A stretch of DNA of 64,000 nucleotides from Caulobacter sp. (GCA_044239675.1 JBIIAX010000005.1:125024-189023), one strand, 5' to 3'. Shown: positions 22,466 through 54,060, counted from the first letter of the stretch. Notes: a model not told the origin generated them from the letters alone. Made by a program: numbers and translations.

Positions 22466-23560
22466 TTGCCGTTCACGATTCACAGTCCGGCCCGCGGCTC
22501 AGCCCTGGCGATCCTGGCCGCGATGGCAGTGATTTCGGCCGGGGCCTTCCTGTCTGGGTGCTCAAGCGTCCAGCCGCAGGTCGCCCTGCCCAGCGCCAGC
22601 GATGAGGCGCTCCGGCAGGAGGCGGCCTTCGAGGCGGATGCGTCCCTGGAGCGGCTTCAGGAGCAGGAAGCCCGGGTCGCCGCCGTCGCCTTCCGGCTGA
22701 CCACGGCCAATGTCGACCTCTGTCCGCAGAAAGGCCCGCGGACCGGTCTGGTGCTGCATGACGCGCTTCAGTACGGGGACGGAATCCGGCCCTATGTCCT
22801 GCGCCGCTTTGGCATGGCCGGCTTTGCCGGGGTCCTGGCCGTGGCCCCGGACAGCCCCGCCGCCCGGGCCGGCGTCCAGCCGGGCGACGCCCTGGTCGCG
22901 GTCAATGGCGGGCGCCTTCCGGAAAGTCCGGTCCCGGAGACCGACAACCGATCCGCCTCCAACCGCGCAAAAGCCAAGACCCAGGAACAGCTCGACGCCG
23001 CTTTCGCCCGAGGCCCGGTCAGGCTGACCCTCCGCCGAGCCGGACAGGACCGGGTCGTCACCGTCGCTCCCGTGCCCGGGTGCGCCTATGATTTCCAGCT
23101 CGATCCGGACAAGGACCTCAGCGCATCAGCCAACGGCAAGACCGTCTTCATCACCACGGCCATGGTCCTCTACGCCGCCAGCGACGACGACCTCGCCATC
23201 CTGCTGGGGCATGAGATGGCCCACAACGTCATGCAGCACCAGTCGCGGATCGCCACCGGGGGCCTGGCCGGCAAGGTCCTGGGCAACATCGGCACGACGC
23301 CCGGCAGCCTGCTGACGACCGAGCGGGAGGCGGACTATGTCGGCCTCTATCTGACCGCCAGGGCCGGCTATGATTTCGGCCGGGCGCAGCAGTTCTGGCG
23401 CCGCTACGGGGCCGATGACGCCAACGCCAGGGACGGTGGCTGGAGCCATCCCGGGTCGCTCGAGCGGTCGACCGTCCTGGGCGCCGCCGCCCGGGAAATC
23501 GAGGGCAAGAAGGCCCGCGGAGAGCCGCTGGTCCCGACCCCGTCCGGAGGCCGGCCATGA
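22466..23560 (+). CDS. M48 family zinc metalloprotease with PDZ domain, lipoprotein
   Basis: Lipobox FLSGC; PDZ motif DSPAARAGVQPGDALVAVNG; HEMAH and EREADYVG; start uncertain (TTG 22466 or ATG 22523). Confidence 0.85.
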   Translation: MPFTIHSPARGSALAILAAMAVISAGAFLSGCSSVQPQVALPSASDEALRQEAAFEADASLERLQEQEARVAAVAFRLTTANVDLCPQKGPRTGLVLHDALQYGDGIRPYVLRRFGMAGFAGVLAVAPDSPAARAGVQPGDALVAVNGGRLPESPVPETDNRSASNRAKAKTQEQLDAAFARGPVRLTLRRAGQDRVVTVAPVPGCAYDFQLDPDKDLSASANGKTVFITTAMVLYAASDDDLAILLGHEMAHNVMQHQSRIATGGLAGKVLGNIGTTPGSLLTTEREADYVGLYLTARAGYDFGRAQQFWRRYGADDANARDGGWSHPGSLERSTVLGAAAREIEGKKARGEPLVPTPSGGRP

Positions 23561-25605
23561 GCATGCCGGAGTCGGCGCCAAAGCGTTCTGGCGGCTTTTT
23601 CAACGCGATGTTCCACGGCCCGGCGGTGACGGCCGAACATCTGGTCTATCGGCCGGATATCGACGGCCTGCGGACCATCGCGGTCGGCTCGGTGGTGCTC
23701 TATCACGCCTTCCCAACCCTGGTGACCGGCGGGTTCATCGGCGTCGACGTCTTCTTCGTCATCTCCGGCTACCTGATCACCTCGATCATCCAGAAGCAGG
23801 CGCTCGGTGGGACCTTCTCGCTGGCGAAATTCTACGAGCGGCGCGTGCGGCGCATCCTGCCGGCGCTGCTCGCCCTGCTGGTCGCGGTGATCGTTGTCGC
23901 CCTGCTGGTCTCGCCGCCCAGCGACGTGCGGGAGATGGCCAAGGGCCTGGCGGGCGCGGCCACCTTCACCTCCAACATCGTCTTCTGGAAGGAGACGGGG
24001 TATTTCGCGCCGGACGCCCACGACGCCCCGCTGTTGCATACCTGGTCCCTGGCGGTGGAAGAGCAGTTCTACCTGACCTGGCCGCTGCTGATCGCCGTCG
24101 TCGTTCGCCGCAGGCCGCTGGCCTGGATCGCCGCGATCGCCGTCGTGTCTTTCGGCCTGAGCGTCTATGACGTCGCCCACCATCCGACGTCAGCCTTCTA
24201 TCTGCCGCAGGATCGCGCCTGGGAATTGCTGGCCGGGGCCGCCCTGGTCTTCCTGCCCCGGATCCGCCTGCCGGCCTGGGCGGCCCAGATCGGCGGCCTG
24301 GTGGGCCTGGCCTGCCTTCTTCTGCCCGCCCTCCTCTACACAGCCAGGACCGACTTTCCCGGACTGGCCGCCCTGCCGGTCTGCCTCGGCACCGCCCTGC
24401 TGATCCAGATCGGCCGCGATCAGCAGACCTTGGCCAATCGCCTCCTGTCGACCCGACCCTTCGTCGGCATAGGCCGCGTTTCCTATTCCCTCTACCTCTG
24501 GCATTGGCCGGTCCTGGTCTACGGCAAGCTGCTGCTGGACCGCCCTCTGACCACGCCCGAGGCTGTCGTGGCGGTCGGTCTGGCCCTCACCCTGGCCGTG
24601 CTGTCGTGGAAATTCCTGGAAGAGCCGGCGCGCACCGCCCCGGCCTCAACCCGCAAGGTTCTGGTCCTGGCGGTGATCGCCTTGCTGGCCACGGCCTTGG
24701 TCGCCGTCGGGCTGTTCGTCTCGCGAGGGCTGCCGGCGCGAGCCTCTGAAGCCGCCCGCATCGCCGATGCCGGCCTTCGCGACACCAACCCCTATCGCGA
24801 CCGCTGCGTGGCGGGATCAAGCCAGTCGACCCCGATCAGCAACTGTCGGTTCGGGTCCGGCGGGCCTCGCTGGACCATCTGGGGGGATTCTCACGCCGAT
24901 GCGGTGGCGCCTGGCCTGTTCCTCAAGGATCGTCCCGAGATCGGCGAGGTGCGGGAAATCGCCAAACACTCCTGTGTCCCCATTCTCGACCTGACGGCGT
25001 TCAAGACCTCCGAGGCCTGCCACGCCTTCAACAGGGCCGCGCTGAAGGCGCTGGCGGTAGACAAGCCCGACACCCTGGTCATCGCTGGACGCTGGGGCGT
25101 CATGCTGCGCCCGGTGTTCGCCGAATACATGGCCAAGGGTGGAGAGCCGGATCCGAAGGTTGCCGAAACCTTCCGCCGCGACGCCAGGCGGACCCTGCAG
25201 GCGGCGCGGGCCGCGGTTGGACCGCAAACCCGCATACTGCTCATCGGTCCGATTCCGGAAGCCCTGTATTCCGTGCCCAAGTGCCGGGCGCGCGCCGAAT
25301 TTACCCATCAGTCGGCCGATCGGCTCTGCCCCGCAATTTCCAGGGCCGATTTCGATCGTTGGGCAGGGCCGGTTGACGCCGCCCTGCGCGACGCCGCCAA
25401 GGCCGCCGACGTAATCTACCTGCCCGCGGCGCCCTATCTATGCGATGCGGTGCAGTGCTCGACGACACAGCAGGGCGCGCCGCGCTATTTCGACGACCAT
25501 CATCTAAGCGGCGCGGGCGCGACCCTGTTGATCGACCGGATTCTCAAGGGCCTGGATAGCGGCGACGCGCCCGTCAGCCGGCCGGAGCCGGCGCCGAAAG
25601 ATTGA
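23557..25605 (+). CDS. Acyltransferase-3 fused to SGNH domain (OafA-like O-acyltransferase)
   Basis: YRPDIDGLR, GVDVFFVISGYLIT, HTWSLAVEEQFY and SYSLYLWHWP motifs; C-terminal GDSHA and DDHHLS SGNH blocks. Confidence 0.92.
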   Translation: MSMPESAPKRSGGFFNAMFHGPAVTAEHLVYRPDIDGLRTIAVGSVVLYHAFPTLVTGGFIGVDVFFVISGYLITSIIQKQALGGTFSLAKFYERRVRRILPALLALLVAVIVVALLVSPPSDVREMAKGLAGAATFTSNIVFWKETGYFAPDAHDAPLLHTWSLAVEEQFYLTWPLLIAVVVRRRPLAWIAAIAVVSFGLSVYDVAHHPTSAFYLPQDRAWELLAGAALVFLPRIRLPAWAAQIGGLVGLACLLLPALLYTARTDFPGLAALPVCLGTALLIQIGRDQQTLANRLLSTRPFVGIGRVSYSLYLWHWPVLVYGKLLLDRPLTTPEAVVAVGLALTLAVLSWKFLEEPARTAPASTRKVLVLAVIALLATALVAVGLFVSRGLPARASEAARIADAGLRDTNPYRDRCVAGSSQSTPISNCRFGSGGPRWTIWGDSHADAVAPGLFLKDRPEIGEVREIAKHSCVPILDLTAFKTSEACHAFNRAALKALAVDKPDTLVIAGRWGVMLRPVFAEYMAKGGEPDPKVAETFRRDARRTLQAARAAVGPQTRILLIGPIPEALYSVPKCRARAEFTHQSADRLCPAISRADFDRWAGPVDAALRDAAKAADVIYLPAAPYLCDAVQCSTTQQGAPRYFDDHHLSGAGATLLIDRILKGLDSGDAPVSRPEPAPKD

Positions 25606-26431: not shown

Positions 26432-27739
26432 TCAGGCCGGTTTGCCGATGGAGCTGTATTCGAACCCGCGGCTCTTCATTTCTTCCGGGCGATAGATGTT
26501 GCGCAGGTCGACCACGATCGGGCTGCGCATCAGCTGTTTGACCCGGTCGAGATCCATGGCGCGGAACTGGTCCCACTCGGTGATGATCACCACCGCGTCG
26601 GCGCCGTCGACGGCGTCATAGGCGTCGTCCTTGAAATCGACGTCCTTGAGCATCGCCTTGGCCTCATGTCCTTCCGGATCATAGGCCTGGACCTTGGCGC
26701 CCATGGCCTGCAGGGCCGGGACAATGTCCAGGCTGGGGGCGTCACGCATGTCGTCGGTGTTGGGCTTGAAGGTGAGGCCCAGGACACCGACCGTCTTGCC
26801 GGTCAGGTCCTTGGAGCCCAGCGCCTTGGCAACCTTGTCGGCCATGGCCTTCTTGCGGCGGTCGTTGACCCGGACGGTGGCCTCGACCAGCTCGATCGGC
26901 GTGCCGGCGTCGGAAGCGGTGCGGACCAGGGCCAGGGTGTCCTTCGGGAAGCAGCTGCCGCCGTAGCCCGGGCCGGCGTGCAGGAACTTGCTGCCGATCC
27001 GGTTGTCGAGGCCGATGCCCTTGGCCACCTGCTGCACGTCGGCTCCGACGGCTTCGCAGAGGTCGGCGATCTCGTTGATGAAGGTGATCTTCATCGCCAG
27101 GAAGGCGTTGGCCGCATATTTGATCAGCTCGCTGGTGCGGCGGCCGACAAAGACGATGGGGGTCTCGTTGAGGTTCAGCGGGCGATACAGCTCGCGCATC
27201 ACCTCGCGGGCCTTTTCGTTGTCGGTGCCGACGACGACGCGGTCGGGCCGCTTGAAGTCGTCGATGGCGGCGCCTTCGCGCAGGAATTCGGGGTTGGAGA
27301 CGACGGCGAAGTCGGCGTCGGGCCGGGCCTCGCGGATGATCTTCTCGATCTCGTCGCCGGTGCCGACCGGAACCGTGGACTTGGTGACCACCACGGTGAA
27401 GCCGTCCATCAGCATGGCGATCTCTTTGGCCGCCGCATAGACGTAGGAAAGATCGGCGTGGCCGTCGCCCCGGCGCGAGGGGGTGCCGACGGCGATGAAC
27501 ACCGCGTCGGCGCTCTTCACCGCTTCATCGGCTTCCAGAGAGAAGGAGATGCGGCCGGCCTTGGCGTTGCGGGCGACCAAATCGTCGAGGCCCGGTTCGA
27601 AGATCGGGATTTCGCCCGCCTTCAGGCGCTCGATCTTGCCGGCATCCTTGTCGATGCAGACGACCGTGTGACCGAAGTCGGCGAAACAGGCCCCGGACAC
27701 CAGTCCGACATAGCCAGTTCCGATCATGGCGACGCGCAT
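26432..27739 (-). CDS. ugd: UDP-glucose 6-dehydrogenase
   Basis: IGTGYVG, VTKSTVPVGT, SNPEFLREG, GYGGSCFPKD and AFKPNTDDMR-like motifs. Confidence 0.95.
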   Translation of the reverse strand: MRVAMIGTGYVGLVSGACFADFGHTVVCIDKDAGKIERLKAGEIPIFEPGLDDLVARNAKAGRISFSLEADEAVKSADAVFIAVGTPSRRGDGHADLSYVYAAAKEIAMLMDGFTVVVTKSTVPVGTGDEIEKIIREARPDADFAVVSNPEFLREGAAIDDFKRPDRVVVGTDNEKAREVMRELYRPLNLNETPIVFVGRRTSELIKYAANAFLAMKITFINEIADLCEAVGADVQQVAKGIGLDNRIGSKFLHAGPGYGGSCFPKDTLALVRTASDAGTPIELVEATVRVNDRRKKAMADKVAKALGSKDLTGKTVGVLGLTFKPNTDDMRDAPSLDIVPALQAMGAKVQAYDPEGHEAKAMLKDVDFKDDAYDAVDGADAVVIITEWDQFRAMDLDRVKQLMRSPIVVDLRNIYRPEEMKSRGFEYSSIGKPA

Positions 27740-28139: not shown

Positions 28140-29711
28140 GTGTGTGTTGGGGATTTTACGCTGCGCCGCGAGACAGAGCTGAGTCACGAGGAGGTCAAGC
28201 CTCGGGCGGCCCGCGCCGCCCTGAGCGGCTTTACCCGGCATGCCGTGGTGCGGATCATGGCGCTGGTCGGCACCCTGCTGTTGGCGCGGATGATCGCCCC
28301 GGCCGGGTTCGGCCTGTTCGCCACCAGCCAGTTTCTGCTTTCCGGCCTGTCGGCCCTCTGTGTCGGGGGGGTCATCGCCGCCCTGGTGCGCCGACGCGAG
28401 GCGTTGAGCGAGGGCGATCTCCGCACCGCCTTTACCGTTCAACAGACCCTGGCGGTCCTGGTGCTGATCGTCGTCTGGTTCGTCGCGCCGCAGATCGTGC
28501 TCGCCTACCACCTGAAGCCCCACGACGTCTGGGTGATCCGGGCGATGTCGGCGATCGTCCTGGTGATGTCGCTGAAGTCGATCCCCAACGCCGTGCTGCA
28601 GCGTCAGGTTCGACATGACCTGGTGGCGGCCAGCGAGGTGGCGGAATACCTGATCTATCTGGTCACCGCCCTGCTGCTGGCCTGGTTGAAGTGGGGCGTC
28701 TGGGCCCTGGTGACCGCGACCGCCGTTCGCCACATCACCGGGATGATCATCCTGCATCTGTCGGCCAGGATGGTCCCCCACTGGGGCCTGGACCGGGCCA
28801 AGGCCGGCCAGCTGCTGAAATTCGCCGTGCCGCTGCAGGCTACGGGCCTGGTCGACCTGGCGACCCGGGCCGCCGCGCCCCTGGCGGCCGGCCTGTTGTT
28901 CAGCGTCGCCACGGTTGGGGTCATCGGCATGGCCAACACCATGCTGGACGCGGTCATCCTGCAGCCCATCGTCCTGCTGTCGGCGCTTCAGCTCCGCCTG
29001 TTCGCCCGCAATCAGGACAGCCAGGATGCGACCCGGCGGCTGATGGCCCAGAGCATCTATGTCGGCGCCGCCGCGGTTTCGCCCTTCGCCGTCTTCCTGG
29101 CCAGCCTGGCGCCGGTGATCATCGGCCTGCTTTTGCCGGGTTCGTGGCAGCAGGTGGGGCCGCTGATCCAGGGGCTGTTCCTGTCCTGCATCATCCAGGT
29201 GGTGGCCTCGCCGATTTCCCAGGCGTCCAAGGCGCTGGGCATGGTCGGCACCTCGCTGGGCGCCTCCGTGGTCAATCTGATCCTGCAGTTGAGCGTCCTG
29301 TTCGCCCTGGAGCCCTATCTGGGCCTGACCGCCTATCCCATCGCCGCGACCGTCGGCGCCGTGGCCTATACCCTTGTGCTGTGGGTGCGGGTCGGGCGGC
29401 GGATCGGCGGGGCGCCGGTCGGGGCTATCCTGCCGGTGGTCGTCGCCAGCCTGGGGGCCGGGGCCATCTGGTGGCTCGCCGGCGTCAGCCACAACCTGCC
29501 CATCGCCCTGGCCGGATTGGTGCTCGGGGGTCTCGTCTATGTCCTTCTGCTGATGCTGCTGTCGGGCAAGGAGATGGCGCGCTACCTGCGGATCCTCGGC
29601 GACGCCACCCTGGCCAAGAAGCCGGCGCTGCTGGCAAAGTCCGCGAAACTGGCCGCCTTGGTGGATCGGGCGCAGATCTTCGGCCGCGGACCGAAGGGCA
29701 GCCCGTCATGA
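28140..29711 (+). CDS. wzx: Wzx-type oligosaccharide flippase (MOP family)
   Basis: LLLARMIAPAGFGLFA N-terminal motif and many hydrophobic segments; start uncertain (GTG 28140 chosen, CTG 28179 possible). Confidence 0.8.
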   Translation: MCVGDFTLRRETELSHEEVKPRAARAALSGFTRHAVVRIMALVGTLLLARMIAPAGFGLFATSQFLLSGLSALCVGGVIAALVRRREALSEGDLRTAFTVQQTLAVLVLIVVWFVAPQIVLAYHLKPHDVWVIRAMSAIVLVMSLKSIPNAVLQRQVRHDLVAASEVAEYLIYLVTALLLAWLKWGVWALVTATAVRHITGMIILHLSARMVPHWGLDRAKAGQLLKFAVPLQATGLVDLATRAAAPLAAGLLFSVATVGVIGMANTMLDAVILQPIVLLSALQLRLFARNQDSQDATRRLMAQSIYVGAAAVSPFAVFLASLAPVIIGLLLPGSWQQVGPLIQGLFLSCIIQVVASPISQASKALGMVGTSLGASVVNLILQLSVLFALEPYLGLTAYPIAATVGAVAYTLVLWVRVGRRIGGAPVGAILPVVVASLGAGAIWWLAGVSHNLPIALAGLVLGGLVYVLLLMLLSGKEMARYLRILGDATLAKKPALLAKSAKLAALVDRAQIFGRGPKGSPS

Positions 29712-31210
29712 TGGCCGCCGCCGCCGCGGGCGAAGCCGGACTGCGACTGGCCGGCGCCTCGTCGGAGGCCGGCCCCATCCCGACCCTGGTCGCCACCCTG
29801 TCCCTCGCGGGCGAGACCTGGTCGGCCCCGGCCGTGGCCATGACGGTGGGGGGCGCGGTGCTGGTCGCTTCCGACCGCACCGGCTGCATCCAGGCCTGGC
29901 GCGGCGCGGATCTCACGCCCCTGTGGCGGCGGGAACTGAAGTCCGAAATCACCTCCTCGCCAGTTGTCGTCGATCTTGCGGGCGATGGCCGGTTCGAGGT
30001 GCTGATCGGCACGCACGGCGGCGACCTCTACCGGCTGGCCATCGACACCGGGGCCACCGTTTCCCGCTTCCGGCTGGGCGAGGCCATCCGCTCGATCCCG
30101 GCTGTGGCCGATGTGGACGGCGACGGCGAACTGGAAATCATTGTCGGCAGCTATGGGCCCAGCGTCTGGGCCATCAAGCGCAACGGCTCAGTCCTGTGGC
30201 AGCGGAAACTGCCCAAGCACCTGTTCATCGGCGGCACCAAGCGGGGCACGGTCTCCCCGCCCCTGGTCCATGACGTCGACCGCGACGGAAAGCTGGAGAT
30301 CGTGCTGGGCACGCGTTCGGCGCGGTTGTTCTGCCTGGATGCTGCGAGCGGCGAGCCCAAGTGGTTCACCACGGTGAAATACGACCCGGACTCCTCACCG
30401 GCCTTCGCCATGGCCGGCGAAAAGCCCCTGGTGGTGTTCGGCGGCGGCGAACACACCAGCGGCCCCGGCGACAACGCCATCATCGCCCTGGACGGCCGCA
30501 CCGGCGAGCGGGTCTGGGCCGCCCCGGCCGGCGGCGGGGTGGATTCCAGCCCGATGATCATCAGCCTGCCGGGCGGAAAGGTCATCGCCGTGGCCTGCAG
30601 CCTGGCGACCGGGCGCTGCCTGGCCGTGAACCTGGCCGACGGGTCGCCAGCGTGGTCCTACGACTTCCCGCACGCCGAGACCTGCAGCCATGCCGATGGT
30701 CATTGCCGCCCGGCCGATGGACGGCCCTATTTCACCGAGAACGCCATCTGCCGCAGCTATACGACGCCGCTGGTCGTGAAGCCGGCAGGCGCGGCGCCGA
30801 TGGTGGTTGTTGGCAACAACGCCGGCCACATCGTCGCCCTGGACGCCGAGACAGGCGCGGTGCGGTTCGCTGATCGGGCCGAAGGAATGGTGCGCGGGTC
30901 GCTGATCCTGGCGCCGCTTTCGCCGGATGGCGGACAGACGCTGGTCGTTCCGGCCGGATCGACGCTGCGGCTCTACAGCTGGGCCGTGGATGCGCCGCCG
31001 ACGCTCCAGTTCAAGGGCCGGCTCGACCACCTGGGCGCCGATCATGAGGCGCCGGTCGCGACTGGTCCTGCCCTGCCGCCCGCGGAGGGGCTCAAGGGCA
31101 GGATGTTCTGGCGGCTGGGCGTGCTCGACGCCTGGCGCCATCTGCTGATCAAGCTGGACGACAAGGTCCTGCGGCGGCTGGGCGTCAAGCTGCTGGAGCA
31201 TGGCTACTGA
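29708..31210 (+). CDS. Beta-propeller protein with FG-GAP/PQQ-like repeats, no signal peptide
   Basis: Repeats DLAGDGRFEVLIGT, DVDGDGELEIIVGS, DVDRDGKLEIVLGT; PQQ-like ALDGRTGERVW, ALDAETGAVRF; ATG overlaps the wzx stop. Confidence 0.8.
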   Translation: MMAAAAAGEAGLRLAGASSEAGPIPTLVATLSLAGETWSAPAVAMTVGGAVLVASDRTGCIQAWRGADLTPLWRRELKSEITSSPVVVDLAGDGRFEVLIGTHGGDLYRLAIDTGATVSRFRLGEAIRSIPAVADVDGDGELEIIVGSYGPSVWAIKRNGSVLWQRKLPKHLFIGGTKRGTVSPPLVHDVDRDGKLEIVLGTRSARLFCLDAASGEPKWFTTVKYDPDSSPAFAMAGEKPLVVFGGGEHTSGPGDNAIIALDGRTGERVWAAPAGGGVDSSPMIISLPGGKVIAVACSLATGRCLAVNLADGSPAWSYDFPHAETCSHADGHCRPADGRPYFTENAICRSYTTPLVVKPAGAAPMVVVGNNAGHIVALDAETGAVRFADRAEGMVRGSLILAPLSPDGGQTLVVPAGSTLRLYSWAVDAPPTLQFKGRLDHLGADHEAPVATGPALPPAEGLKGRMFWRLGVLDAWRHLLIKLDDKVLRRLGVKLLEHGY

Positions 31211-32502
31211 TGACGGATGGTTTCACGCCTCTCTGCGGACCGGACCTGGCCTGGGTGAACACCACCCTGGACCTGATCGAGCAGCGCTACGTCGGCGGAG
31301 CCAAGATTCTGGTCACCGAGCTGAACGGCGATGGGGTGATCACCGATCCCGAGCCGCTGGTCGCCGACTTCGGCGATGTCCTGCCCTTCCTGCAGCGCTA
31401 TGGCCGAAACGACTTCGCCAGGGAGCAGATGCTGCAGACCGGGCCATACCTGACCGGCGGCCTCTATCGCAGCGGCGGGCGGCTGAAGCTGTTCAGCAAT
31501 CACGACTGGCTGCTGGGCCTGCTGGAACTGCACCGGGCGACGGGCGATGTCGCCCTGCTGGAAGCGGCGCGGACCGGCTCCCTGACCATCATCGAGACGA
31601 TGTTCGTCGGCGACCTGCTGATTGACGAGCCCATCGTCGGCTCCGATCCCCGCACCTGGGCGGCCCGGGCCAACGCCTTCAACGGCGGCTATATCGAGCT
31701 GTGGCTGGAGCTTTACGACCTGACCGGCGACCCGGCCTTCCTGAGCGCCTCGGTGCGGCTGGCCGAGGGTTGGGTAGCCACCGCGGGCTTCCGCAAGTAC
31801 GGGCTGTTCTGCCGGGTGCTCAGCGCCCATTCGGATATCCTGGGCGCGCTGCTGAAGCCCGCCTCCAACCTGTCGGTCCTGCTGTTCAAGGATAACACCA
31901 ACATGGTCTGGAGCCTTGCGGCTCTGGAACACCGGACCAAGGACGGCCGCTGGAAAGGCGTCATCGACCGCTGGCTGACCGGGTTCGAGACCCTGATGCT
32001 CAACGGCGGCGACGTCTGGCTGCAGCTCGACCGGAACATGCAGGGCCGGGAGGTCAGCCTGAAGGCCGCCTTCGCCACCATCGACCTGCTCTGCGATCTG
32101 GCCGCCGAGGGGCTGTCGGACCGGTCGCTGGCCGTCGCCCAGGTGATCGCCGACCGCTGGCTGACCCGGCAATGGGACAACGGCCTGTTCCCCGAACATC
32201 CGGATGGCGACCGCGACCACCTGGACGCCAATGTCGACATGGCCATCGCCCTGCAGAAGCTGGCCGGCCTGACGGGCAGGCCCGAATATGCCGAGGCGGC
32301 CGGTCGCGCCGCCCAGGCCGTCCCGGCGCTGCACGCCACGCCTTACGGCCTGTGCCTGGCCGTCGGACCGGACGGCGCGGTGGTGCGCGACAAGATCACC
32401 GTCAAATACCAGGCCCTGGCCCTGAAACTGGCCCTGGCGCCGGCCGATCCGAAAGCCCTGCTGGCGGATGCTGACCTGATGTCCCTGTTGCGAGATCGCT
32501 GA
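31210..32502 (+). CDS. Hypothetical (alpha/alpha)6 six-hairpin-like protein
   Basis: Recurrent helix-hairpin pattern LLELHRATGDVALLEAA, LELYDLTGDPAFLSAS, LQKLAGLTGRPEYAEAA; coupled to both neighbours. Confidence 0.7.
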   Translation: MTDGFTPLCGPDLAWVNTTLDLIEQRYVGGAKILVTELNGDGVITDPEPLVADFGDVLPFLQRYGRNDFAREQMLQTGPYLTGGLYRSGGRLKLFSNHDWLLGLLELHRATGDVALLEAARTGSLTIIETMFVGDLLIDEPIVGSDPRTWAARANAFNGGYIELWLELYDLTGDPAFLSASVRLAEGWVATAGFRKYGLFCRVLSAHSDILGALLKPASNLSVLLFKDNTNMVWSLAALEHRTKDGRWKGVIDRWLTGFETLMLNGGDVWLQLDRNMQGREVSLKAAFATIDLLCDLAAEGLSDRSLAVAQVIADRWLTRQWDNGLFPEHPDGDRDHLDANVDMAIALQKLAGLTGRPEYAEAAGRAAQAVPALHATPYGLCLAVGPDGAVVRDKITVKYQALALKLALAPADPKALLADADLMSLLRDR

Positions 32503-33687
32503 ATGAAGCTGGGCTACGTCATCGCCAGGTTCCCCTGGCCCTCGGAGACCTTCGTCAGTCGCGAGGTGATCGACCTGCTGCGCATCGGCGTGGACCTGGA
32601 AATCTATTCCTTCGAGCGGCCGACAGGCGCCGACCTCGACCTGCTGACGCCGGAAGCCAAGGCTCTGATCGACAAGGTCCAGTACATCAGCAAGCAGGAG
32701 GCGGCGCTCAGCCTGGCCAGCCTGTCCCTGCCGAAGATGCTGAAACTGAACAACCGCTTCAGCCGGGAAGCCACCGAGAAGACCAACGCCCCCCTGCGGC
32801 TGGGCCGGGCCGCCGCCATTATCCGCCGGGCCAAGGCCGACGGGGTGGACGGCCTGCACGCCCACTGGCCCTACGCCACCCAGGTGGCCGCCCTGGCCCA
32901 CGCCGGATCGGGTCTGCCCTATTCGATCAGCGTGCACGCGCATGAGGTCGCCTACGACAGCGGCCACTTCCCTGCCGCCTTCGAGACCCTGAAGTTCTCC
33001 AGCTTCTGCAATCAGGCGGCGATGGACTACCTGCTGCAGCGCCTGCCCAACGACGAGCGGGCGCGCTGTCACCTGCACTATCACGGGGTCGACACCACGG
33101 CCTTCGCCGAACTGCCGCCGGCGGGCGAGGCCAAGCCGTTGCGAATTCTGTCGGCTGGACGGATCACCCCGACCAAGGGGTTCGATCGGCTGGTCCGCGC
33201 CTGCGCCCTGGCCAAGAAAGAGGGGCTGGATGTCCGGCTGACCATCCTGGGCCGCGGCAATGGGCTGGAGGCGCTGAAGACCCTCGCGGCCGAACTGGAC
33301 TTCGCCGAGGAACTGGAGCTGCCCGGCTGGGTGGCCCATTCGGAAGTCAGCGGCTTCCTGGCCCGCAGCCACGTCTTCGCCCTGCTGGCCAATACCGACT
33401 TCAACGACGGCCTGCCCAATGTCGTGGTCGAGGCCATGGCGGTGGGACGGCCGGTCATCGTCTCCCCCCTGCCCGCTGCCCGCGAAGCGGTCATCAACGG
33501 CGAGACCGGCTTCATTCTGGACGGCGTCGAGGACTATCCGGGCTTTGTCGCCGCCCTTCGCCAACTGGTGGATGGCGCCGGGGCCGAGCGCATGGGAAGG
33601 GCGGCCCGCGCTCTGGTCGTGGGGCGCTATGACGCCCGCGCCCATATCCGCGCCCTGGCTGAACAACTCGAGGGCGCCCATGGATGA
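32503..33687 (+). CDS. GT4 glycosyltransferase, WcaL-like
   Basis: FPWPSETFV, LHAHW, LSAGRITPTKG and DGLPNVVVEAMA motifs. Confidence 0.88.
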   Translation: MKLGYVIARFPWPSETFVSREVIDLLRIGVDLEIYSFERPTGADLDLLTPEAKALIDKVQYISKQEAALSLASLSLPKMLKLNNRFSREATEKTNAPLRLGRAAAIIRRAKADGVDGLHAHWPYATQVAALAHAGSGLPYSISVHAHEVAYDSGHFPAAFETLKFSSFCNQAAMDYLLQRLPNDERARCHLHYHGVDTTAFAELPPAGEAKPLRILSAGRITPTKGFDRLVRACALAKKEGLDVRLTILGRGNGLEALKTLAAELDFAEELELPGWVAHSEVSGFLARSHVFALLANTDFNDGLPNVVVEAMAVGRPVIVSPLPAAREAVINGETGFILDGVEDYPGFVAALRQLVDGAGAERMGRAARALVVGRYDARAHIRALAEQLEGAHG

Positions 33688-34549
33688 GATGACACCGCCC
33701 GCCGCCGCGACCTCAGCGCGTCCGACGCTGGCCGCCGTGGCCATCGCCCGCGACGAGCGGCGCGACATCGTCGGCTTCATCGCCAATCTGGCGCCCTGGG
33801 TGGACGAGATCGTCATCGTCGACGACGGCTCGACCGACGGGACGCTGGAATTCCTCGAGACCTGCGGGTTTCCGGTGACGATCGTCAAACGGCGGCTGGA
33901 GCCGGTCGGCGGTTTCGCGGCCCAGCGCAACAGCGGCCTGGACGTCGCCAGGAGCGACTGGCTGCTGCATATGGATATCGACGAGCGGGTGACGCCGGAA
34001 CTGGCGGCGGAAATCCGCGCCAATATCGCCGACACTTCGATGAACGGCTTCAACTACCGCCGGCTGAACTTCTTCCTGCACCGGCCCTTCCCGGCCGGCG
34101 GCTGGGAAAGCTGGAACAATCCGCAGCTGGGCCGCCGGGGTCATCATCGCTTCGTCAACGCCGTGCATGAAGAGGTCGAGGTCGAGGGTGGGTCGGCCAG
34201 GACGGGGCAGCTGACGGCGATGATGTGGCATCTGAACGACGAGAACTACGTCGAGCGCCTGCGCAAGAGCGTGCAGTATTCCCAGCTGTCGGCCGATGAG
34301 ATCGAGAAGGCCGGGCCGGTGCGCGGCATCGACCTGATCCTTCAGCCGCTGAAGAGGGGCCTCAAGGCCTATGTCCTGAAGGGCGCCTGGAAGCATGGCC
34401 TGCACGGCCTGATCTTCGGGGTCTACACCTTCGCCAGCACCTTCAACCGCTACGCCATCGCCTGGGATCGCCAGAACCAGATCGGGCGCGAGACACTGGA
34501 AGGCCAGCTGGCCGACAACTGGCAGCGGCATGGGGCGCCCAAGGCATGA
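33680..34549 (+). CDS. GT2 glycosyltransferase, LgtF/WaaE-like
   Basis: IVIVDDGSTDGT, FAAQRNSG, LHMDIDER and VHEEV motifs. Confidence 0.88.
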   Translation: MDEMTPPAAATSARPTLAAVAIARDERRDIVGFIANLAPWVDEIVIVDDGSTDGTLEFLETCGFPVTIVKRRLEPVGGFAAQRNSGLDVARSDWLLHMDIDERVTPELAAEIRANIADTSMNGFNYRRLNFFLHRPFPAGGWESWNNPQLGRRGHHRFVNAVHEEVEVEGGSARTGQLTAMMWHLNDENYVERLRKSVQYSQLSADEIEKAGPVRGIDLILQPLKRGLKAYVLKGAWKHGLHGLIFGVYTFASTFNRYAIAWDRQNQIGRETLEGQLADNWQRHGAPKA

Positions 34550-38155: not shown

Positions 38156-39553
38156 ATGAACCTACCGATCGCCGTATTCGGACTGTATCTCGCCCTCTGC
38201 CTTGGCCTCTACGTCTACTACCGGCGGGGCCTGTTCTTCGTCTATCCGATTACCCTGATCATTCTGCCGACCCTGCGGCTGAATCTCGGCTTTCCGCTGT
38301 ACCTGTTCGATGTAAGCGGCGGGCTGATCCTGGCGGCGGCCGTTCAGGCTGGGGGCTGGCGGGCATGGCCGCGCGGCGTCCTGCCCTGGCATTTCATCTT
38401 CGCCGGCTTCCTGGTCTTTGCGGGCATCATCGTGCCGATGTTCCGCTACGGATTCTCGTTGCAGAGCGTCTGGATCAGCGGCCACGCCTCGCTTTCGTTC
38501 ATGCAGATCTTCACGGCCGCCGCCCTGGTCAATGTTCCCTCGCTGGCGCCGTCCCGCAAATTCCTCATCTGGGGGATTGTGGCGGGCCTCGCGGCGCTCG
38601 GCATCGTTCTCTGGCTGCAGTTTGGCAGTCCGGGGATGTCGCGCGCCATCAACGGCTTCTTCTATCGGGATCAGGCCACCAGCTTCAACATGACCGAATT
38701 CGGGGCCGCGATCACGGCGCAGCGCTCGGCCGGCCCCTTCTTCAATCCCAACAGCGCCGGGGTGGTCGCCGTGCTGGCGGCCTATGTGGCCTGGCTGCTG
38801 GGATCGCGAAAGATGACCTTCGCGGCCTTCGCCCTGGCCGCGGCCTGCGTCATCCCGACGGTGTCCAGGCAGGCCATGCTGGCCCTGGCCCTGGCCCTCT
38901 CCGTCAGCCTGATCGCCGGGGATCCGAAGCGACGGATTGTCGGAATTGCGCTCCTGGCCCTCGTTCCTCTGGTCGCTCCGCTTGCGACGATGATCCCAGC
39001 CCTGGCTCCCGCTTTCGAACGCTTCGGGCGCTGGCAGGGTGGAGCCCTGGAGGACAACAACGTCAGCGGCCGCTTGATCGACGGGCCGATCCGCCTGTGG
39101 AATCTGATCGTCGAAAAGCCCGACACCGCGGTGGTCGGCGCGGGCTGGGACGTGATCAAGTTGATGAACCAGGGCCTCGACGTGGGCATCTATTCCACCG
39201 GCTTCGTCTCAAACTCGTTCCTGCTCTGGCTCTACTACGGCGGGATCGGCGGCTTCATCCTGATCCTGGTGTTCTTTGGGCAGATGCTCCGGGCATCTAT
39301 CCAGTCGCGGGGATTGCTGAAGGCCAAGGCCGTGGCCATCACCGTGGCCATCATGTTCCTCTATTTTTCGGACAACGGCGGCATCCTCATCGAGGCCTAT
39401 ATTGCGCCAATCTCCATTGCGGCCGGCCTGATCTTCGCTTTTCAGGTGCGCCAGGAGGCCCTCGCCAGACAGATGCAGCGCCGACCGCCGGGTGTTCTGC
39501 CTGTCGAAAGCTGGATTCCCGAGGCCAGTCCCGCCGCGCGGCTTGAGCGGTGA
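38156..39553 (+). CDS. Wzy/O-antigen ligase family membrane protein, probable repeat-unit polymerase
   Basis: Multi-pass; RSAGPFFNPNSAG, TVSRQA, NVSGRL and SNSFLLWLYYGGIGG fit Wzy_C-type motifs; lies among the GT genes. Confidence 0.7.
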   Translation: MNLPIAVFGLYLALCLGLYVYYRRGLFFVYPITLIILPTLRLNLGFPLYLFDVSGGLILAAAVQAGGWRAWPRGVLPWHFIFAGFLVFAGIIVPMFRYGFSLQSVWISGHASLSFMQIFTAAALVNVPSLAPSRKFLIWGIVAGLAALGIVLWLQFGSPGMSRAINGFFYRDQATSFNMTEFGAAITAQRSAGPFFNPNSAGVVAVLAAYVAWLLGSRKMTFAAFALAAACVIPTVSRQAMLALALALSVSLIAGDPKRRIVGIALLALVPLVAPLATMIPALAPAFERFGRWQGGALEDNNVSGRLIDGPIRLWNLIVEKPDTAVVGAGWDVIKLMNQGLDVGIYSTGFVSNSFLLWLYYGGIGGFILILVFFGQMLRASIQSRGLLKAKAVAITVAIMFLYFSDNGGILIEAYIAPISIAAGLIFAFQVRQEALARQMQRRPPGVLPVESWIPEASPAARLER

Positions 39554-41997: not shown

Positions 41998-43488
41998 ATG
42001 CTGTTCAACTCCCCCATCTTCCTGTTCGCCTTCCTGCCGATCTCGGTGTTTGGCTACTATCTGGTGGCCAGGCTATGGGGCGGCGTCGCGGCCCGCGTCT
42101 GGCTGGTCGGCTGTTCGCTGTTCTTCTACGCCTGGGCCGTGCCGCAGTACGCGGCCCTGCTGATCGGCTCGATCCTGTTCAACTTCGTGGCCGGGCGGGT
42201 GATCGAGCGGGCGGAGACACGGCGAAAGACCCTGCTGACGGTCGGCATCGCCGCCAACCTGCTGACCATCGGCTATTTCAAATACGCCAACTTCTTCGTC
42301 CAGACGGTGTCGCAGTCGTTCGGGCTGAACGCCCCGATCCTGCACATCATCCTGCCCCTGGCGATCTCCTTCTTCACCTTCCAGCAGATCGCCTATCTGG
42401 TGAACGCCTATCGGCGCAATTCCACCAACCCCAACCTGCTCGACTACGCCTGTTTCATCACCTTCTTCCCGCATCTGATCGCCGGCCCCATCGTCCAGCA
42501 CAGCGACATCCTTCCTCAGTTCCGCGACGAGAAGATCTACAGGCTGGACCTCGGCCGGCTGGCCTCCGGCTTGACCATCTTCCTGCTGGGCTTGGCCAAG
42601 AAGGTGATCCTGGCGGATGAGTTCGGCAACTATGCCAACATCGCCTTCGACGGGGTGACGCGCGGCGCGCACCTGTCGCTGTACGAGGCCTGGGGGGGCG
42701 CGCTGGCCTACACATTCCAGCTCTATTTCGACTTTTCCGGATATTCGGACATGGCCATCGGCCTGGGTCTGATGTTCGGCATCATCATGCCGATGAACTT
42801 CAATTCGCCCTACAAGTCCTTGTCGATCATCGAGTTCTGGCGCCGCTGGCACATGACCCTGTCGCGGTTCCTGCGCGAGTTCATCTACATTCCGCTGGGC
42901 GGCAATCGCAAAGGCGACCTGCGCCGCCACCTGAACCTGTTCCTGACCATGCTGATCGGCGGGCTGTGGCACGGCGCCTCCTGGACCTTCGTCGTCTGGG
43001 GCGGGTTCCACGGGGCGATGCTGGTGGTGAACCACGGCTGGAACAGCCTGATGACCCGGCTGGGCCGGCCGGAGGGCAGCAAGCCGATCGGCCTGGGTAT
43101 TCCGGCCCTGATCCTGACCTTCGTCTGCGTCGTCATCGGCTGGGTGATGTTCCGCGCCCCCTCCTGGGAAGTGGCCACCGCCGTCTACCAGGGGATGCTG
43201 GGCCTCAATGGCGCGGTGCTGCCCACCGACCTGGTCGACAAGGCGCCCTTCCTGTCGCTGCTGGGCGAAGCCGGCAAGCTGACCCACTTCAATGACGGCA
43301 CCAACATCGGCTTCCTGCGGATGGTGATCATGCTGGGGATCGGCCTGGGGGTCTGTATGCTGGCCACCAACATCCCGCAGCTCTCCCAGCGGGCCCGCTG
43401 GTGGCTGGTGGTCCTGACCTTCGCCCTGGTCCTGCAGAAGGTGCTCTTCTCCGGCCAGATCTCCCACTTCATCTACTTCCAGTTCTGA
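41998..43488 (+). CDS. MBOAT O-acyltransferase, AlgI/PatA-like
   Basis: MLFNSPIF, LPLAISFFTFQ, FPHLIAGPI, QLYFDFSGYSDMAIG, EFWRRWHMTLS and GLWHGA motifs. Confidence 0.93.
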   Translation: MLFNSPIFLFAFLPISVFGYYLVARLWGGVAARVWLVGCSLFFYAWAVPQYAALLIGSILFNFVAGRVIERAETRRKTLLTVGIAANLLTIGYFKYANFFVQTVSQSFGLNAPILHIILPLAISFFTFQQIAYLVNAYRRNSTNPNLLDYACFITFFPHLIAGPIVQHSDILPQFRDEKIYRLDLGRLASGLTIFLLGLAKKVILADEFGNYANIAFDGVTRGAHLSLYEAWGGALAYTFQLYFDFSGYSDMAIGLGLMFGIIMPMNFNSPYKSLSIIEFWRRWHMTLSRFLREFIYIPLGGNRKGDLRRHLNLFLTMLIGGLWHGASWTFVVWGGFHGAMLVVNHGWNSLMTRLGRPEGSKPIGLGIPALILTFVCVVIGWVMFRAPSWEVATAVYQGMLGLNGAVLPTDLVDKAPFLSLLGEAGKLTHFNDGTNIGFLRMVIMLGIGLGVCMLATNIPQLSQRARWWLVVLTFALVLQKVLFSGQISHFIYFQF

Positions 43489-43496
43489 GGTCGCAG

Positions 43497-44489
43497 ATGA
43501 AAGCGCTGCTCAAGCTGATCGCCGCCGCCGCCCTGTCGCTGGCGCTCTATCTGGTGATCAACGGCTTCGTGCTGGACCGGCCGGTGTCGCTGGGCTCCAT
43601 CGCCCCGATGATCGCCAAGAAGGTGGCCTATGGGGAAAAGGCGCCCGGCCCGAAGCTGGTCATCATCGCCGGCAGCAACGCCCGCACCAGCCACCGTTGC
43701 GCCCTGCTGGAGCAGCGGCTTGGGATGGCCTGCGTCAACGCCGGCAACACGGCGGGCCTGGGCATGGACTACATGCTGCGAAGCTTCGAGCCGATCATCA
43801 AGCCGGGCGACGTGGTCTATCTGCCCATGGAGTACCAGCAGTATGGCGCGACCCGCACCCAGACCCTGACCGGGCCGGACGCCGCCGTTCTGTTCCGTCA
43901 TGACAAGGCGGCGCTGCTGGCGCGAGGACCCGAGGGGGTGATCCGGGCGGCCTTCATGTTCGATCTGTCGACGATCATCGACAGCGGGGTTGAGGCGATC
44001 TTGAATGTCGCGGGCGTTTCCGCGCGGTTCGACGCCAAGGCCTTCGACATCCAGGGCGACGAGCTGGGCCTGACCCACGAGCGCGGCAAGACTTTCGACG
44101 CCTTCATCGCCAGCACGCGCTGGCGGCCGCCGACCGCCGCCCAGTTTCGCGCCGATACCGGGGCCAAGGATGTGATCCGCGATTTCGTCAAACGCAGCCG
44201 CGCGCGCGGGGTGCGGGTCATCGCCGGCCTGCCCGTCAGCTTCCGGGACGTGCCGATCCCCGCTGATCTGCTGGCGGAGATGAGGCGGTTTTATGAGTCG
44301 GCCGGCGCCGAATTCCTGGTCCTGCCCAACGAGAGCCAGTACCCGCGCGACGACTTCTACGACACGCCCTTCCACCTGGAAGAAGGCGCGACCCTGCAGC
44401 ACACCGAGCTTCTGGCACAGGCCCTGGCCGGCCCTCTGAAGCCGGAGAGAGACGCCGCCGCCCGCAACCGCATCGGAAGCCGTCCATGA
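43497..44489 (+). CDS. Periplasmic SGNH-like partner of the MBOAT (AlgJ/DltD-like)
   Basis: N-terminal anchor; AGSN, NAG and DTPFHL (DxxH) blocks; directly downstream of the MBOAT gene. Confidence 0.7.
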   Translation: MKALLKLIAAAALSLALYLVINGFVLDRPVSLGSIAPMIAKKVAYGEKAPGPKLVIIAGSNARTSHRCALLEQRLGMACVNAGNTAGLGMDYMLRSFEPIIKPGDVVYLPMEYQQYGATRTQTLTGPDAAVLFRHDKAALLARGPEGVIRAAFMFDLSTIIDSGVEAILNVAGVSARFDAKAFDIQGDELGLTHERGKTFDAFIASTRWRPPTAAQFRADTGAKDVIRDFVKRSRARGVRVIAGLPVSFRDVPIPADLLAEMRRFYESAGAEFLVLPNESQYPRDDFYDTPFHLEEGATLQHTELLAQALAGPLKPERDAAARNRIGSRP

Positions 44490-52722: not shown

Positions 52723-53490
52723 TTAGTAGGAGCCGCGGCGGAAGATGACCACCGGGACGGTGGCCACGAGTATCCAGGCGTCGAGGCCGAGACTCTTCGA
52801 CCGGACGTAGGCGGTGTCGATGGCGACGCGGCGGCGGTAGGACAGATCATTGCGACCGCTCACCTGCCACAGACCGGTGATGCCCGGACGGACGGACTGG
52901 TAATGGATGAAGTAGCGGCCGTAGCGAGCGCCTTCTTCGGCCACGATCGGGCGCGGGCCCACAAGGCTCATCTCGCCGCGCAGGACGTTGAACAGCTGGG
53001 GAAGCTCATCGAGGCTGGTCTTGCGCAGAAAGGCGCCGATCCGGGTGATGCGGGGATCGTTCCGCAGCTTGTGATCCAGGGCCCATTCCGCGCGTGCTTC
53101 AGGCGATTCAGCCAGCAGCCGCTCCAACCGCTCCTTGGCGTCGACCGCCATGGACCGGAACTTCATGCAGGGGAAACTGCGGCCGTCGCGGCCGACCCGG
53201 CGGTGGGCGAAGAAGATCGGACCGCCGTCGTCAAGCCGAACCAGAAGGGCCGTTAGAAGCATCAGCGGGGCCAGGGCGACGAGCAGCAGGCTGGCCAGGA
53301 TCACGTTGATAATGCGTTCGCCGTCCCAAGACCGGCGCCGCGTATCAGGCCGAACCAAGGGGCTCGGAGACATTGACGCGGCGTGGGCAAAAATCTGCCG
53401 CTGCGGTGACGGAACGCTGTGAACGTCCGCTTCGCGGTGGCGTGCATCGATGCGGGATGTGAATTCCGCGCTGGGCTGCATTAGGGACAT
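52723..53490 (-). CDS. Priming undecaprenyl-phosphate glycosyl-1-phosphate transferase (ExoY/WbaP-like, small PGT)
   Basis: [34 protein letters not shown] and [14 protein letters not shown] motifs. Confidence 0.93.
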
Positions 53491-53645
53491 GCCTCACGTT
53501 CGCCTTCGCACTGCAGCAAGAGCAACCACGGCGGCCAAAATTCTCGCTGGCCGTCGCCGCTACATCAATTGTTGCGGCTTTTATCAGCAGGTTATGCCGA
53601 AAAACAACCCAACCAGGGTAAGAACCCGCGAATTATTTCAGACAC

Positions 53646-53674
53646 GAAAAAGCCGGCAACCTGGGTTGCCGGCT
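53646..53674 (-). terminator. Intrinsic terminator downstream of small protein 1
   Basis: AGCCGGCAAC/GTTGCCGGCT stem followed by a U-tract on the minus strand. Confidence 0.75.
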
Positions 53675-53726
53675 CTCAAGACGCATCCTGACGCGAAAAA
53701 CACCCGCGCCACGCGATGGGGGAACC

Positions 53727-54005: not shown

Positions 54006-54025
54006 CAGAAACCTCCTTCAAGGAC

Positions 54026-54060
54026 AGCGCCAATACGGACGGGCCAAATGGCCAGACGCC
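54026..54060 (-). promoter_or_regulatory. Conserved structured 5' leader, copy 1
   Basis: mRNA GGCGUC-U-GGCC-AUUU-GGCC-N10-GGCGCU; same geometry as copies 2 and 3. Confidence 0.65.

Follow-up and report, generated by a model that had tools for sequence, protein, structure and literature searches.

A conserved propeller-toroid gene pair in a Caulobacter exopolysaccharide locus, a candidate cytoplasmic module for remodelling lipid-linked sugars

Archaeal Agl32 and its relative AglQ are soluble single alpha-toroids encoded among the glycosyltransferases of lipid-linked glycans (PMC12624080, PMC13308652, PMC3827465). Agl32 converts glucuronic acid (GlcA) into iduronic acid (IdoA) in an N-linked glycan built on dolichol phosphate (DolP), sulfation being the next step (PMC12624080, PMC13308652, PMC3827465), and its authors favour the DolP-linked tetrasaccharide as the substrate, soluble UDP-GlcA not being excluded (PMC12624080, PMC13308652). 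Its nearest solved structures are cellobiose 2-epimerase (CE), mannose isomerase and AGE, which it overlaps in part and without the AGE-superfamily catalytic residues (H184, E187, H243 and H374 in R. albus CE; PMC13308652). Descriptions of bacterial Wzx/Wzy pathways usually comprise glycosyltransferases, a flippase, a polymerase, proteins for export, and acyl-, pyruvyl- or methyltransferases as decorating enzymes. Here we analyse a stretch of 64,000 nucleotides of Caulobacter sp. DNA (GCA_044239675.1, JBIIAX010000005.1:125024-189023; hereafter the window, from whose first letter all positions are counted) in which two genes, encoding a beta-propeller and an alpha/alpha toroid (hereafter the propeller and the barrel), sit in a large Wzx/Wzy-type exopolysaccharide locus between the flippase gene and the first glycosyltransferase gene. 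The two genes form a real and well-conserved module, and we tentatively infer that this module remodels a sugar of the lipid-linked repeat unit ahead of its flipping.

A conserved cassette of propeller, barrel and two glycosyltransferase genes

The genes on which the argument turns are the following.

29708..31210, + strand: propeller gene, 500 amino acids (aa), eight-bladed BamB/PQQ-type beta-propeller (Pfam, AlphaFold2, Foldseek)
31210..32502, + strand: barrel gene, 430 aa, alpha/alpha toroid of 14 helices, distant relative of the GH47/PL2 clan (AlphaFold2, Foldseek, profiles)
32503..33687, + strand: GT4 glycosyltransferase (EpsE-like, here GT4a; Pfam and NCBIfam matches), directly 3' of the barrel gene
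33680..34549, + strand: GT2 glycosyltransferase, fourth member of the cassette
28140..29711, + strand: Wzx-type MOP flippase (Pfam/NCBIfam), with an uncertain start codon (27975, 28140 or 28245) and a stop codon overlapping the propeller start
26432..27700, - strand: ugd, UDP-glucose 6-dehydrogenase, divergent from the operon and the context of a uronate hypothesis

The window, which stems from an organism of a lake-water metagenome, has a G+C content of about 68%, and the + strand frames of the propeller and barrel genes were taken as the coding frames because their third-position G+C is 0.88-0.89; long antisense open reading frames (ORFs) across the pair were rejected as high-GC artefacts. 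An earlier note, made from the sequence of the window, had described the pair as translationally coupled to its neighbours, and this can be read at all three junctions. At the wzx/propeller junction (29706-29714, TCATGATGG) the TGA that ends wzx (29709-29711) and the ATG of the propeller gene (29708-29710) overlap, at the propeller/barrel junction (31205-31215, TACTGATGACG) the propeller stop TGA (31208-31210) and the barrel ATG (31210-31212) have base 31210 in common, and at the barrel/GT4 junction (32497-32508, CGCTGAATGAAG) the barrel stop (32500-32502) is directly followed by the GT4 ATG at 32503. Both proteins are predicted to be cytoplasmic: no signal peptide or membrane segment was found in either window protein, the first 12 residues of both are devoid of K/R, an N-terminal hydrophobic core is absent, and the highest 19-residue Kyte-Doolittle values are 1.72 for the propeller (inside a predicted beta-strand region) and 1.32 for the barrel. 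The absence of a signal peptide, which the earlier note had stated for the two window proteins, extends to the propeller orthologues, 0/43 of which carry one.

The pairing is conserved well beyond Caulobacter, contrary to one of the outcomes that the earlier note had named as refuting it, and with it the two glycosyltransferases: propeller, barrel, GT4a and GT2 occur together in five phyla or classes, namely Alpha-, Gamma- and Deltaproteobacteria, Bacteroidota and Dehalococcoidia. A barrel search yielded 15 genome loci (Rhodopseudomonas, Sphingomonadales, Gammaproteobacteria, Deltaproteobacteria, Bacteroidota, Dehalococcoidia), 13 of which contain the propeller by tblastn with the window proteins. 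The order propeller-barrel-GT4a-GT2 is found in almost all 15, the exceptions being a contig that starts at the barrel and a metagenome-assembled genome with the genes on two contigs, and three further loci identified by exact protein look-up carry the same cassette. In one 8.1-Mb genome the cassette members lie apart, yet in one locus, and in loci L018 and L030 the order is broken with all members still in one locus. A distant variant (25-31% identity) likewise unites barrel, GT4a, GT2, GT4b, propeller and ugd in one locus. Propeller-to-barrel gaps are mostly -4 to +5 nucleotides (nt) across loci; barrel-to-GT4a gaps range from -4 to +1 nt in seven loci, with one of +12 nt in L008. A reciprocal scan of metagenome contigs, starting from the propeller, found the barrel following in 6/6 contigs that reach far enough, and the orthologue totals are alike (59 barrels, about 54 propellers), many of the two kinds lying on contigs with the same length.

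The genes around the cassette are far less constant. Between wzx and the propeller, other taxa carry variable tailoring genes (TylF methyltransferase, PhyH dioxygenase, sulfotransferase), and the flanking acyl-, methyl- and sulfotransferases, the dioxygenase and the precursor genes vary between loci whereas the cassette stays. No sugar-activation gene is common to the compared cassette loci, and the cassette itself holds neither a kinase nor a nucleotidyltransferase. Up to three sulfotransferase genes were seen in related cassettes (L017, 5691-7401 and 13899-14801; L008, 7609-8547), and some polysaccharides of such loci are probably sulfated, judging from these genes. The distant relatives of the barrel have no propeller, yet they too lie among glycosyltransferases and GT-C-type proteins, in loci that are biosynthetic and not catabolic. 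Two of them, P0300 (L020, 2464-3753) and P0204 (L021, 3156-4439), each stand in glycosyltransferase-rich loci beside a nitroreductase-methyltransferase fusion and an LPG_synthase_TM protein, which constitutes a second recurring neighbourhood of the wider barrel family.

Folds, family ties and conserved residues

The barrel had been taken in the earlier note for a six-hairpin (alpha/alpha)6 barrel. A helical toroid it is, but the AlphaFold2 model (predicted local distance difference test, pLDDT, 96.3; predicted TM-score, pTM, 0.94) displays 14 main helices, the last inner one being short, and the best Foldseek TM-scores (0.65-0.70, at 16-18% identity) were obtained with the (alpha/alpha)7 enzymes of bacterial and human GH47 (4AYO, 1X9D, 1FO3, 5KK7). 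The best Foldseek E-values (1.8e-9 to 1e-7) went to mannose isomerase, AGE and cellobiose 2-epimerase (5x32, 3gt5, 5zig), with which the barrel superposes over part of its length at a TM-score of about 0.55 and a root mean square deviation (rmsd) of 6-7 A. As modelled, the barrel has more in common with the seven-hairpin GH47/PL2 fold than with six-hairpin barrels, including the AGE and C5-epimerase families that the earlier note had named for comparison.

In sequence searches, the only Pfam match of the window barrel is PL2, at 16.4 bits against a PF06917 cut-off of 26.6, residues 230-346 aligning with positions 353-464 of the 491-residue profile; GH47 (PF01532) gave no match at E<=1 for this protein, C5-epim_C (PF06662) did not match it, and single-sequence searches of the PDB, NCBIfam and plasmids found nothing. 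The window barrel passes no curated family threshold in Pfam or NCBIfam. Among its 43 orthologues, Pfam matches are to PL2 (37, best E=4.6e-10), GH127 (30), GH76 (23) and GH88 (8), and more rarely to GH47 (4, best E=0.031), C5-epim_C (3, best E=3.8e-5) and AGE (PF07221; 3, weak); the PL2 matches of the family fall in the last third of the profile and are partly non-collinear hairpin matches. A barrel profile search of 1.84 billion representatives yielded 404 clusters at 50% identity, and among the 150 best listed members all are single-domain proteins of at most 525 aa. Two distant relatives, P0300 (41.6 bits) and P0317 (43.1 bits), pass the Pfam GH47 gathering score of 22.9, and P0300 is linked to the window barrel at E=3e-15 in a local search. 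A profile of the extended family (67 sequences, 21-55% identity) matched human ER mannosidase I (ERManI) at E=5e-7 in two collinear stretches, its remaining PDB matches being single-hairpin and often non-collinear. The profile of the GH47-like subgroup (A4) gave only non-collinear single-hairpin PDB matches to GH76-type proteins, and a 144-aa segment of human ERManI used as a database query matched exon-sized fragments alone. We place the barrel outside GH47 itself, as a distant relative at the level of the superfamily.

Both families are uncharacterised, as had been supposed. Both are unannotated in NCBIfam, which has no match to the barrel, Pfam has no family for the barrel, and database names are 'hypothetical' or generic, some barrel orthologues being called 'mannose-6-phosphate isomerase' or 'YyaL' at source; a cluster look-up gave no names for the distant barrel relatives, and nothing relevant to a propeller/toroid pair, or to a cytoplasmic GH47-like protein in polysaccharide clusters, was found in the searched literature.

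The barrel motifs quoted in the earlier note, ADFGD (52), FSNHD (95), FKDNTN (226) and DANVD (339), with L..L..TGD/R..A hairpins at 104, 164 and 348, are all present and coincide beyond chance with invariant columns of the 43 orthologues (39-61% identity). In the extended family nine positions are absolutely invariant, seven of them charged or polar. The conserved segments are as follows.

31363..31377, + strand: ADFGD, residues 52-56; D56 invariant in the extended family
31492..31506, + strand: FSNHD, residues 95-99, at the position of the GH47 'FESTIR' acid motif; D/E99 invariant
31678..31698, + strand: FNGGYIE, residues 157-163; E163 conserved in 66/67
31885..31902, + strand: FKDNTN, residues 226-231; K227 and N229 invariant in the extended family
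32218..32238, + strand: HLDANVD, residues 337-343, aligned with the GH47 'LRPET' base motif; D339 and D343 invariant in 67/67
32404..32427, + strand: KYQALALK, residues 399-406; K406 invariant, residue 399 always K or R
32491..32499, + strand: C-terminal R-D-R; D429 and R430 invariant and always the last residues

Alternate helices carry the conserved polar residues at their N-terminal ends, which hold the active site in toroid enzymes, and D56, D/E99, E163, D339, D343 and D429 together with K227, K406 and R430 would form a putative active-site ring in the model. The correspondence with GH47 is partial. E163 falls at the conserved glutamate of the GH47 'QLEF' motif, and in the HMMER alignment the GH47 base E599 stands opposite N341 beside a two-residue gap, whose removal would place D343 there. 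The general-acid glutamate (E330 of human ERManI) aligns with S96, in a column that varies among orthologues (L10, S9, D9, F6, Y4, E2), and the regions of the third carboxylate (D463) and of the Ca-binding threonine (T688) lie outside the profile alignment. The Ca-binding TEAHP motif of the GH47 C-terminus differs from the invariant ...LLRDR end of the barrel family, and by analogy with the C-terminal hairpin of GH47 this RDR may possibly plug the centre of the barrel. Three histidines (H98, H337, H375) are invariant in the propeller-linked subfamily, H98 and H337 not being conserved in the extended family, and the best-conserved tyrosines, Y161 and Y400, are Tyr in less than half of it.

The propeller fold proposed in the earlier note was recovered by Pfam (PQQ_2, E=1e-25; FG-GAP_3, E=6e-11), by an AlphaFold2 model built from 43 orthologues (pLDDT 90.2, pTM 0.90), which shows eight four-stranded blades followed by a long C-terminal helix, and by Foldseek, with a designed 8-blade propeller (TMt 0.91), BamB and YxaL at E=1e-17 to 1e-22. 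The protein scores far below the BamB equivalog cut-off (TIGR03300, 65.5 bits against 285) and those of all quinoprotein models (TIGR03075, 38 against 480; TIGR03074, 26 against 833). It also weakly matched the propeller of lambda-carrageenase (E=5e-9) and RGL11. Its distinguishing segments are the following.

29972..30298, + strand: three FG-GAP-type D-x-D-x-DG..E loops, residues 89-97, 135-143 and 189-197 (regular-expression match, orthologue alignment)
30683..30760, + strand: insertion C326-x-H328-x4-C333...C348-R-S-Y; three Cys invariant and His at least 90% conserved among the 43 orthologues
31091..31171, + strand: C-terminal helix, residues 462-488, on a variable linker; pLDDT about 90, D474 invariant in orthologues

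The Ca-binding-type loops noted earlier are indeed there (DLAGDGRFE at 89, DVDGDGELE at 135, DVDRDGKLE at 189) and, like the barrel motifs, on invariant columns; most orthologues have five, the extra two being degenerate in the window protein. In the insertion, where model pLDDT drops to 69-81, C326, H328, C333 and C348 probably constitute a Cys3His metal site, to judge from their conservation; a periplasmic location with disulfides was rejected, since the orthologues all lack a signal peptide and the invariant cysteines are three in number, beside a His. The C-terminal helix is weakly amphipathic (hydrophobic moment 0.1-0.35) and on this evidence is more likely to pack against a protein than to lie in the membrane; a role as membrane anchor was rejected on account of its charge, its low amphipathicity and the confident model. 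Invariant or near-invariant polar residues are also found in the blades (R128, D228, E248, D255, D279, R349 and R396 across the 43 orthologues).

Candidate roles of the pair

The reading that we tentatively favour is that the pair is a cytoplasmic module which remodels a sugar of the undecaprenyl (Und)-diphosphate-linked repeat unit before flipping. The barrel would be the catalytic subunit, a seven-hairpin toroid with its own ring of carboxylates and basic residues, and the propeller, an 'empty' eight-blade platform of the BamB/PQQ type, would be made in a fixed ratio with the barrel, would probably bind it, and would hold or present the substrate. The latter would be the unit just built by the adjacent GT4 and GT2 on the cytoplasmic face, to be flipped by Wzx afterwards, and its sugar would be altered, not added, by the pair. 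Modification after glycosyl transfer is suggested because the cassette is constant while no sugar-activation gene travels with it. The earlier note had left the choice between a lipid-linked repeat unit and a nucleotide sugar; tailoring of the lipid-linked intermediate seems to us the most economical reading.

The single most likely chemistry would be proton abstraction and re-addition on an in-chain sugar, i.e. an epimerisation, for instance at C5 of a hexuronate, comparable to that of archaeal Agl32; uronate C5-epimerisation takes about half of the weight that we give to on-lipid remodelling. This idea gains some weight from the Agl32 precedent, the carboxylate and Lys/Arg ring, the closeness of ugd in the window and the presence of sulfotransferases at two related loci. 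By analogy, the ring would suit a metal- or base-assisted abstraction of the C5 proton as in PL2, a family for which Abbott and Boraston reportedly described, in 2007, a cytoplasmic member and a metal- and Arg-assisted abstraction of the uronate C5 proton. The earlier note had derived uronate epimerisation from the nearby ugd, and of that suggestion the chemistry keeps a precedent in Agl32/AglQ whereas the genetic link weakens: ugd lies within 10 kb in 6 of about 17 informative loci (the window and 5 others) and was rejected as a defining partner, being linked in about a third of loci, C5-epim_C matches are limited to 3/43 orthologues, and no invariant tyrosine of the GlcE type is present.

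A number of points weigh against on-lipid remodelling. Most loci, including three from Rhodopseudomonas whose clusters match that of the window almost throughout, have no ugd within 10 kb. The best-supported homology of the barrel is to a hydrolase family, GH47, and not to an epimerase; the catalytic residues of GlcE-type C5-epimerases (E499, Y500, N510, Y560 and Y578; PMC13308652) have no invariant counterpart in the barrel, and H98 and H337 of the propeller-linked subfamily are not kept in the wider family. Three AglQ fragments, reconstructed from the mutagenesis primers in the literature, gave scores of 3.5-10 bits with hidden Markov models of the barrel, on different hairpins and barely above shuffled controls. 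The conserved polar positions of the propeller suggest that it could itself be an enzyme. The physical interaction of the pair is proposed from gene coupling, and no natural fusion of its members was found; a 731-aa metagenomic protein, P0058, which might have been a barrel-GT4 fusion, was rejected as a frameshift artefact, its N-terminus and junction being read out of frame. Finally, function is predicted here from sequences and models.

The same homology makes it conceivable, though in our estimate unlikely, that the barrel is instead a GH47-like cytoplasmic glycosidase or transglycosidase, trimming the repeat unit or hydrolysing stalled or mis-built Und-linked intermediates in carrier recycling or editing and quality control, with the propeller recognising the substrate. 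The highest TM-scores (0.65-0.70, to bacterial and human GH47), the collinear match of the family profile to human ERManI (E=5e-7), the relatives P0300 and P0317 above the Pfam GH47 threshold, and the position of D339 and D343 at the GH47 base motif and of E163 at the 'QLEF' glutamate all argue for it. Cytoplasmic glycosidase-like toroid domains moreover serve biosynthesis in cyclic beta-1,2-glucan synthase, which provides a precedent. However, the general-acid position E330 is S96 in the barrel and variable (L, S, D, F, Y), the Ca-binding 'TEAHP' hairpin is not recognisable in a family that ends in RDR, and the window protein stays below every glycoside-hydrolase family threshold. Wzx/Wzy pathways are not known to include a trimming step in the cytoplasm, and a constant partnership with one GT4/GT2 pair is unlike a general clean-up enzyme.

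Two further explanations appear to us quite improbable, both to a like degree. According to the first, neither protein is an enzyme, and the pair is a scaffold gathering GT4, GT2 and perhaps Wzx near the membrane, the propeller serving as a platform like BamB and the toroid as a carbohydrate- or protein-binding adaptor. The closest solved relatives of the propeller (BamB, YxaL) are non-catalytic, all quinoprotein models are far from their cut-offs, the tight coupling to wzx and GT4 suggests a stoichiometric assembly, and the conserved C-terminal helix on its variable linker resembles a docking element. Nine invariant barrel positions in 67 sequences, seven of them charged or polar and at helix ends of the active-site type, would nevertheless be unusual for a pure scaffold, and the propeller also retains conserved Arg, Asp and Glu. 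According to the second, the barrel works on a soluble precursor in place of the lipid-linked glycan: as an AGE-like isomerase or epimerase it would convert a free sugar, a sugar phosphate or a nucleotide sugar and supply an unusual donor to GT4 or GT2. The best Foldseek E-values, which are to cytoplasmic mannose isomerase, AGE and cellobiose 2-epimerase, the orthologue names 'mannose-6-phosphate isomerase' and 'YyaL', and the invariance of H98, H337 and H375 in the propeller-linked subfamily are consistent with such a role. Against it stand the poor superposition on AGE enzymes (TM-score about 0.55, rmsd 6-7 A), the weak Pfam AGE matches in 3/43 orthologues, histidines that are not conserved in the wider family, a cassette with no kinase or nucleotidyltransferase for free-sugar activation, and a propeller partner that has no role in known AGE enzymes.

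That the pair is catabolic, a cytoplasmic lyase or hydrolase (PL2/GH88-like toroid, PL11/PL22/carrageenase-like propeller) degrading imported oligosaccharides of its own polymer, is very unlikely indeed: PL2 is the Pfam family of most orthologues (37/43, best E=4.6e-10), GH88 matches 8/43 and the propeller weakly resembles lambda-carrageenase (E=5e-9) and RGL11, but the PL2 matches are limited to the last third of the profile and partly non-collinear, transporters, sugar kinases and further genes of catabolism are not linked to the pair, and in each phylum examined its genes lie inside a biosynthetic operon, with wzx on one side and a glycosyltransferase gene on the other.

Coming back to on-lipid remodelling, a bolder form of it, which we regard as doubtful taken as a whole, would make the pair an unrecognised cytoplasmic glycan-editing machine, present in at least five phyla or classes, in which a GH47/PL2-derived enzyme with a new catalytic constellation and an obligate metal-binding propeller alters the configuration or structure of the Und-linked sugar after its transfer, creating a conserved polysaccharide motif that no nucleotide sugar can provide. 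Should remodelling on the lipid be true, the pairing of a 'degradative' fold with a propeller would bring a new type of step, carrier-lipid sugar remodelling, into bacterial polysaccharide assembly; it could explain L-iduronate or L-guluronate in repeat-unit polymers without a dedicated nucleotide-sugar pathway, and the GH47/PL2 seven-hairpin fold would be extended to a cytoplasmic biosynthetic role. Since the barrel family is sizeable and found in glycan-biosynthesis loci, assigning its function would improve the annotation of many genomes.

The surrounding locus and comparison with known systems

The first gene of the locus (23557-25605, +), upstream of the divergent ugd, encodes an AT3 acyltransferase of the OafA type joined to an SGNH domain, and the locus continues with wzx, propeller, barrel, the EpsE-like GT4, GT2 and a second GT4 (TuaH-like). 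Thereafter follow two AT3 acyltransferases, a Wzy-like protein, two GT4s, an MBOAT with a partner ORF of no family, and another GT4. The other strand encodes an O-antigen-ligase-like protein, a TPR protein, Wzc, Wza, an SDR epimerase and a WbaP-type phosphoglycosyl transferase. Four separate O-acylation systems are encoded (AT3-SGNH, two AT3 proteins and MBOAT). The MBOAT O-acyltransferase gene is followed 9 nt downstream by the partner ORF, of 330 aa (together 41998-44489, +) and with no Pfam or NCBIfam match, which by its position could be an extracytoplasmic MBOAT partner like AlgJ/AlgX or PatB, from an undescribed family. Two Wzy_C/O-antigen-ligase-like membrane proteins (38156-39553, +; 45702-47012, -, the second adjoining the TPR protein) show weak matches to the exosortase-system (PEP-CTERM/XrtA) models PEP_O_lig_1 and PrsT, and no exosortase was seen in the window. 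Between the phosphoglycosyl transferase gene and a nucleotidyltransferase-AGE gene lies a stretch of about 2.5 kb of lower G+C (53490-56070, 0.635-0.648), in which no ORF with the codon bias of the genome and no Rfam family match were found. The gene next to it (56070-58292, +), just outside the polysaccharide locus, encodes a fusion protein, about 730 aa long, whose sugar-phosphate nucleotidyltransferase domain is N-terminal and whose C-terminal AGE toroid (E=2e-73) stands in place of the usual cupin-type mannose-6-phosphate isomerase domain.

Among known enzymes, the GH47 class I alpha-1,2-mannosidases (human ERManI, 1X9D/5KIJ; Caulobacter K31, 4AYO) are seven-hairpin toroids like the barrel and give its best superposition; both have the motif positions F-x-x-x-(D/R)-x-L-G-L-L and G-L-x-P-E, and in both the helix bearing the GH47 base starts with an acidic residue. 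GH47 enzymes are secreted or lumenal, whereas the barrel is predicted to be cytoplasmic and is encoded in a biosynthetic operon, and it departs from them by the absence of the general-acid Glu, a Ca-binding Thr hairpin that is not recognisable, its RDR end and several invariant Lys/Arg. The PL2 pectate lyases (Yersinia PelP/PelW type; 2V8K, 5A29) have the same rare (alpha/alpha)7 fold and are matched by 37/43 orthologues; the window barrel remains below the PL2 threshold with the part bearing the metal site unaligned, and its context is biosynthetic, not pectinolytic.

On the propeller side, BamB, YxaL and the 'empty' quinoprotein-like propellers resemble the window protein in their eight blades, PQQ_2-type repeats and lack of a cofactor-binding signature. 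Unlike BamB, the window protein has neither a lipoprotein nor a Sec signal, being cytoplasmic by prediction, and it adds DxDxDG loops, the Cys3His insertion, the C-terminal helix and a toroid gene beside it. PQQ-dependent dehydrogenases are periplasmic, in contrast to the predicted location of the window propeller, which is far below their family cut-offs.

The comparison with Agl32 and AglQ was made by fold and gene context and, for AglQ, with sequence fragments alone. Agl32 and the barrel have the same nearest structures (AGE-type), are soluble single toroids and are encoded in gene clusters for lipid-linked glycans; sulfotransferases and ugd accompany some loci of Agl32/AglQ and of the bacterial cassette alike. 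Agl32 has 372 aa and needs no propeller partner, whereas the barrel has 430 aa and is coupled to a propeller, and the bacterial cassette shows no consistent link to uronate synthesis. Both folds of the pair are known; what is new is the cytoplasmic, biosynthetic and propeller-coupled use of a GH47/PL2-type toroid with a different set of conserved residues.

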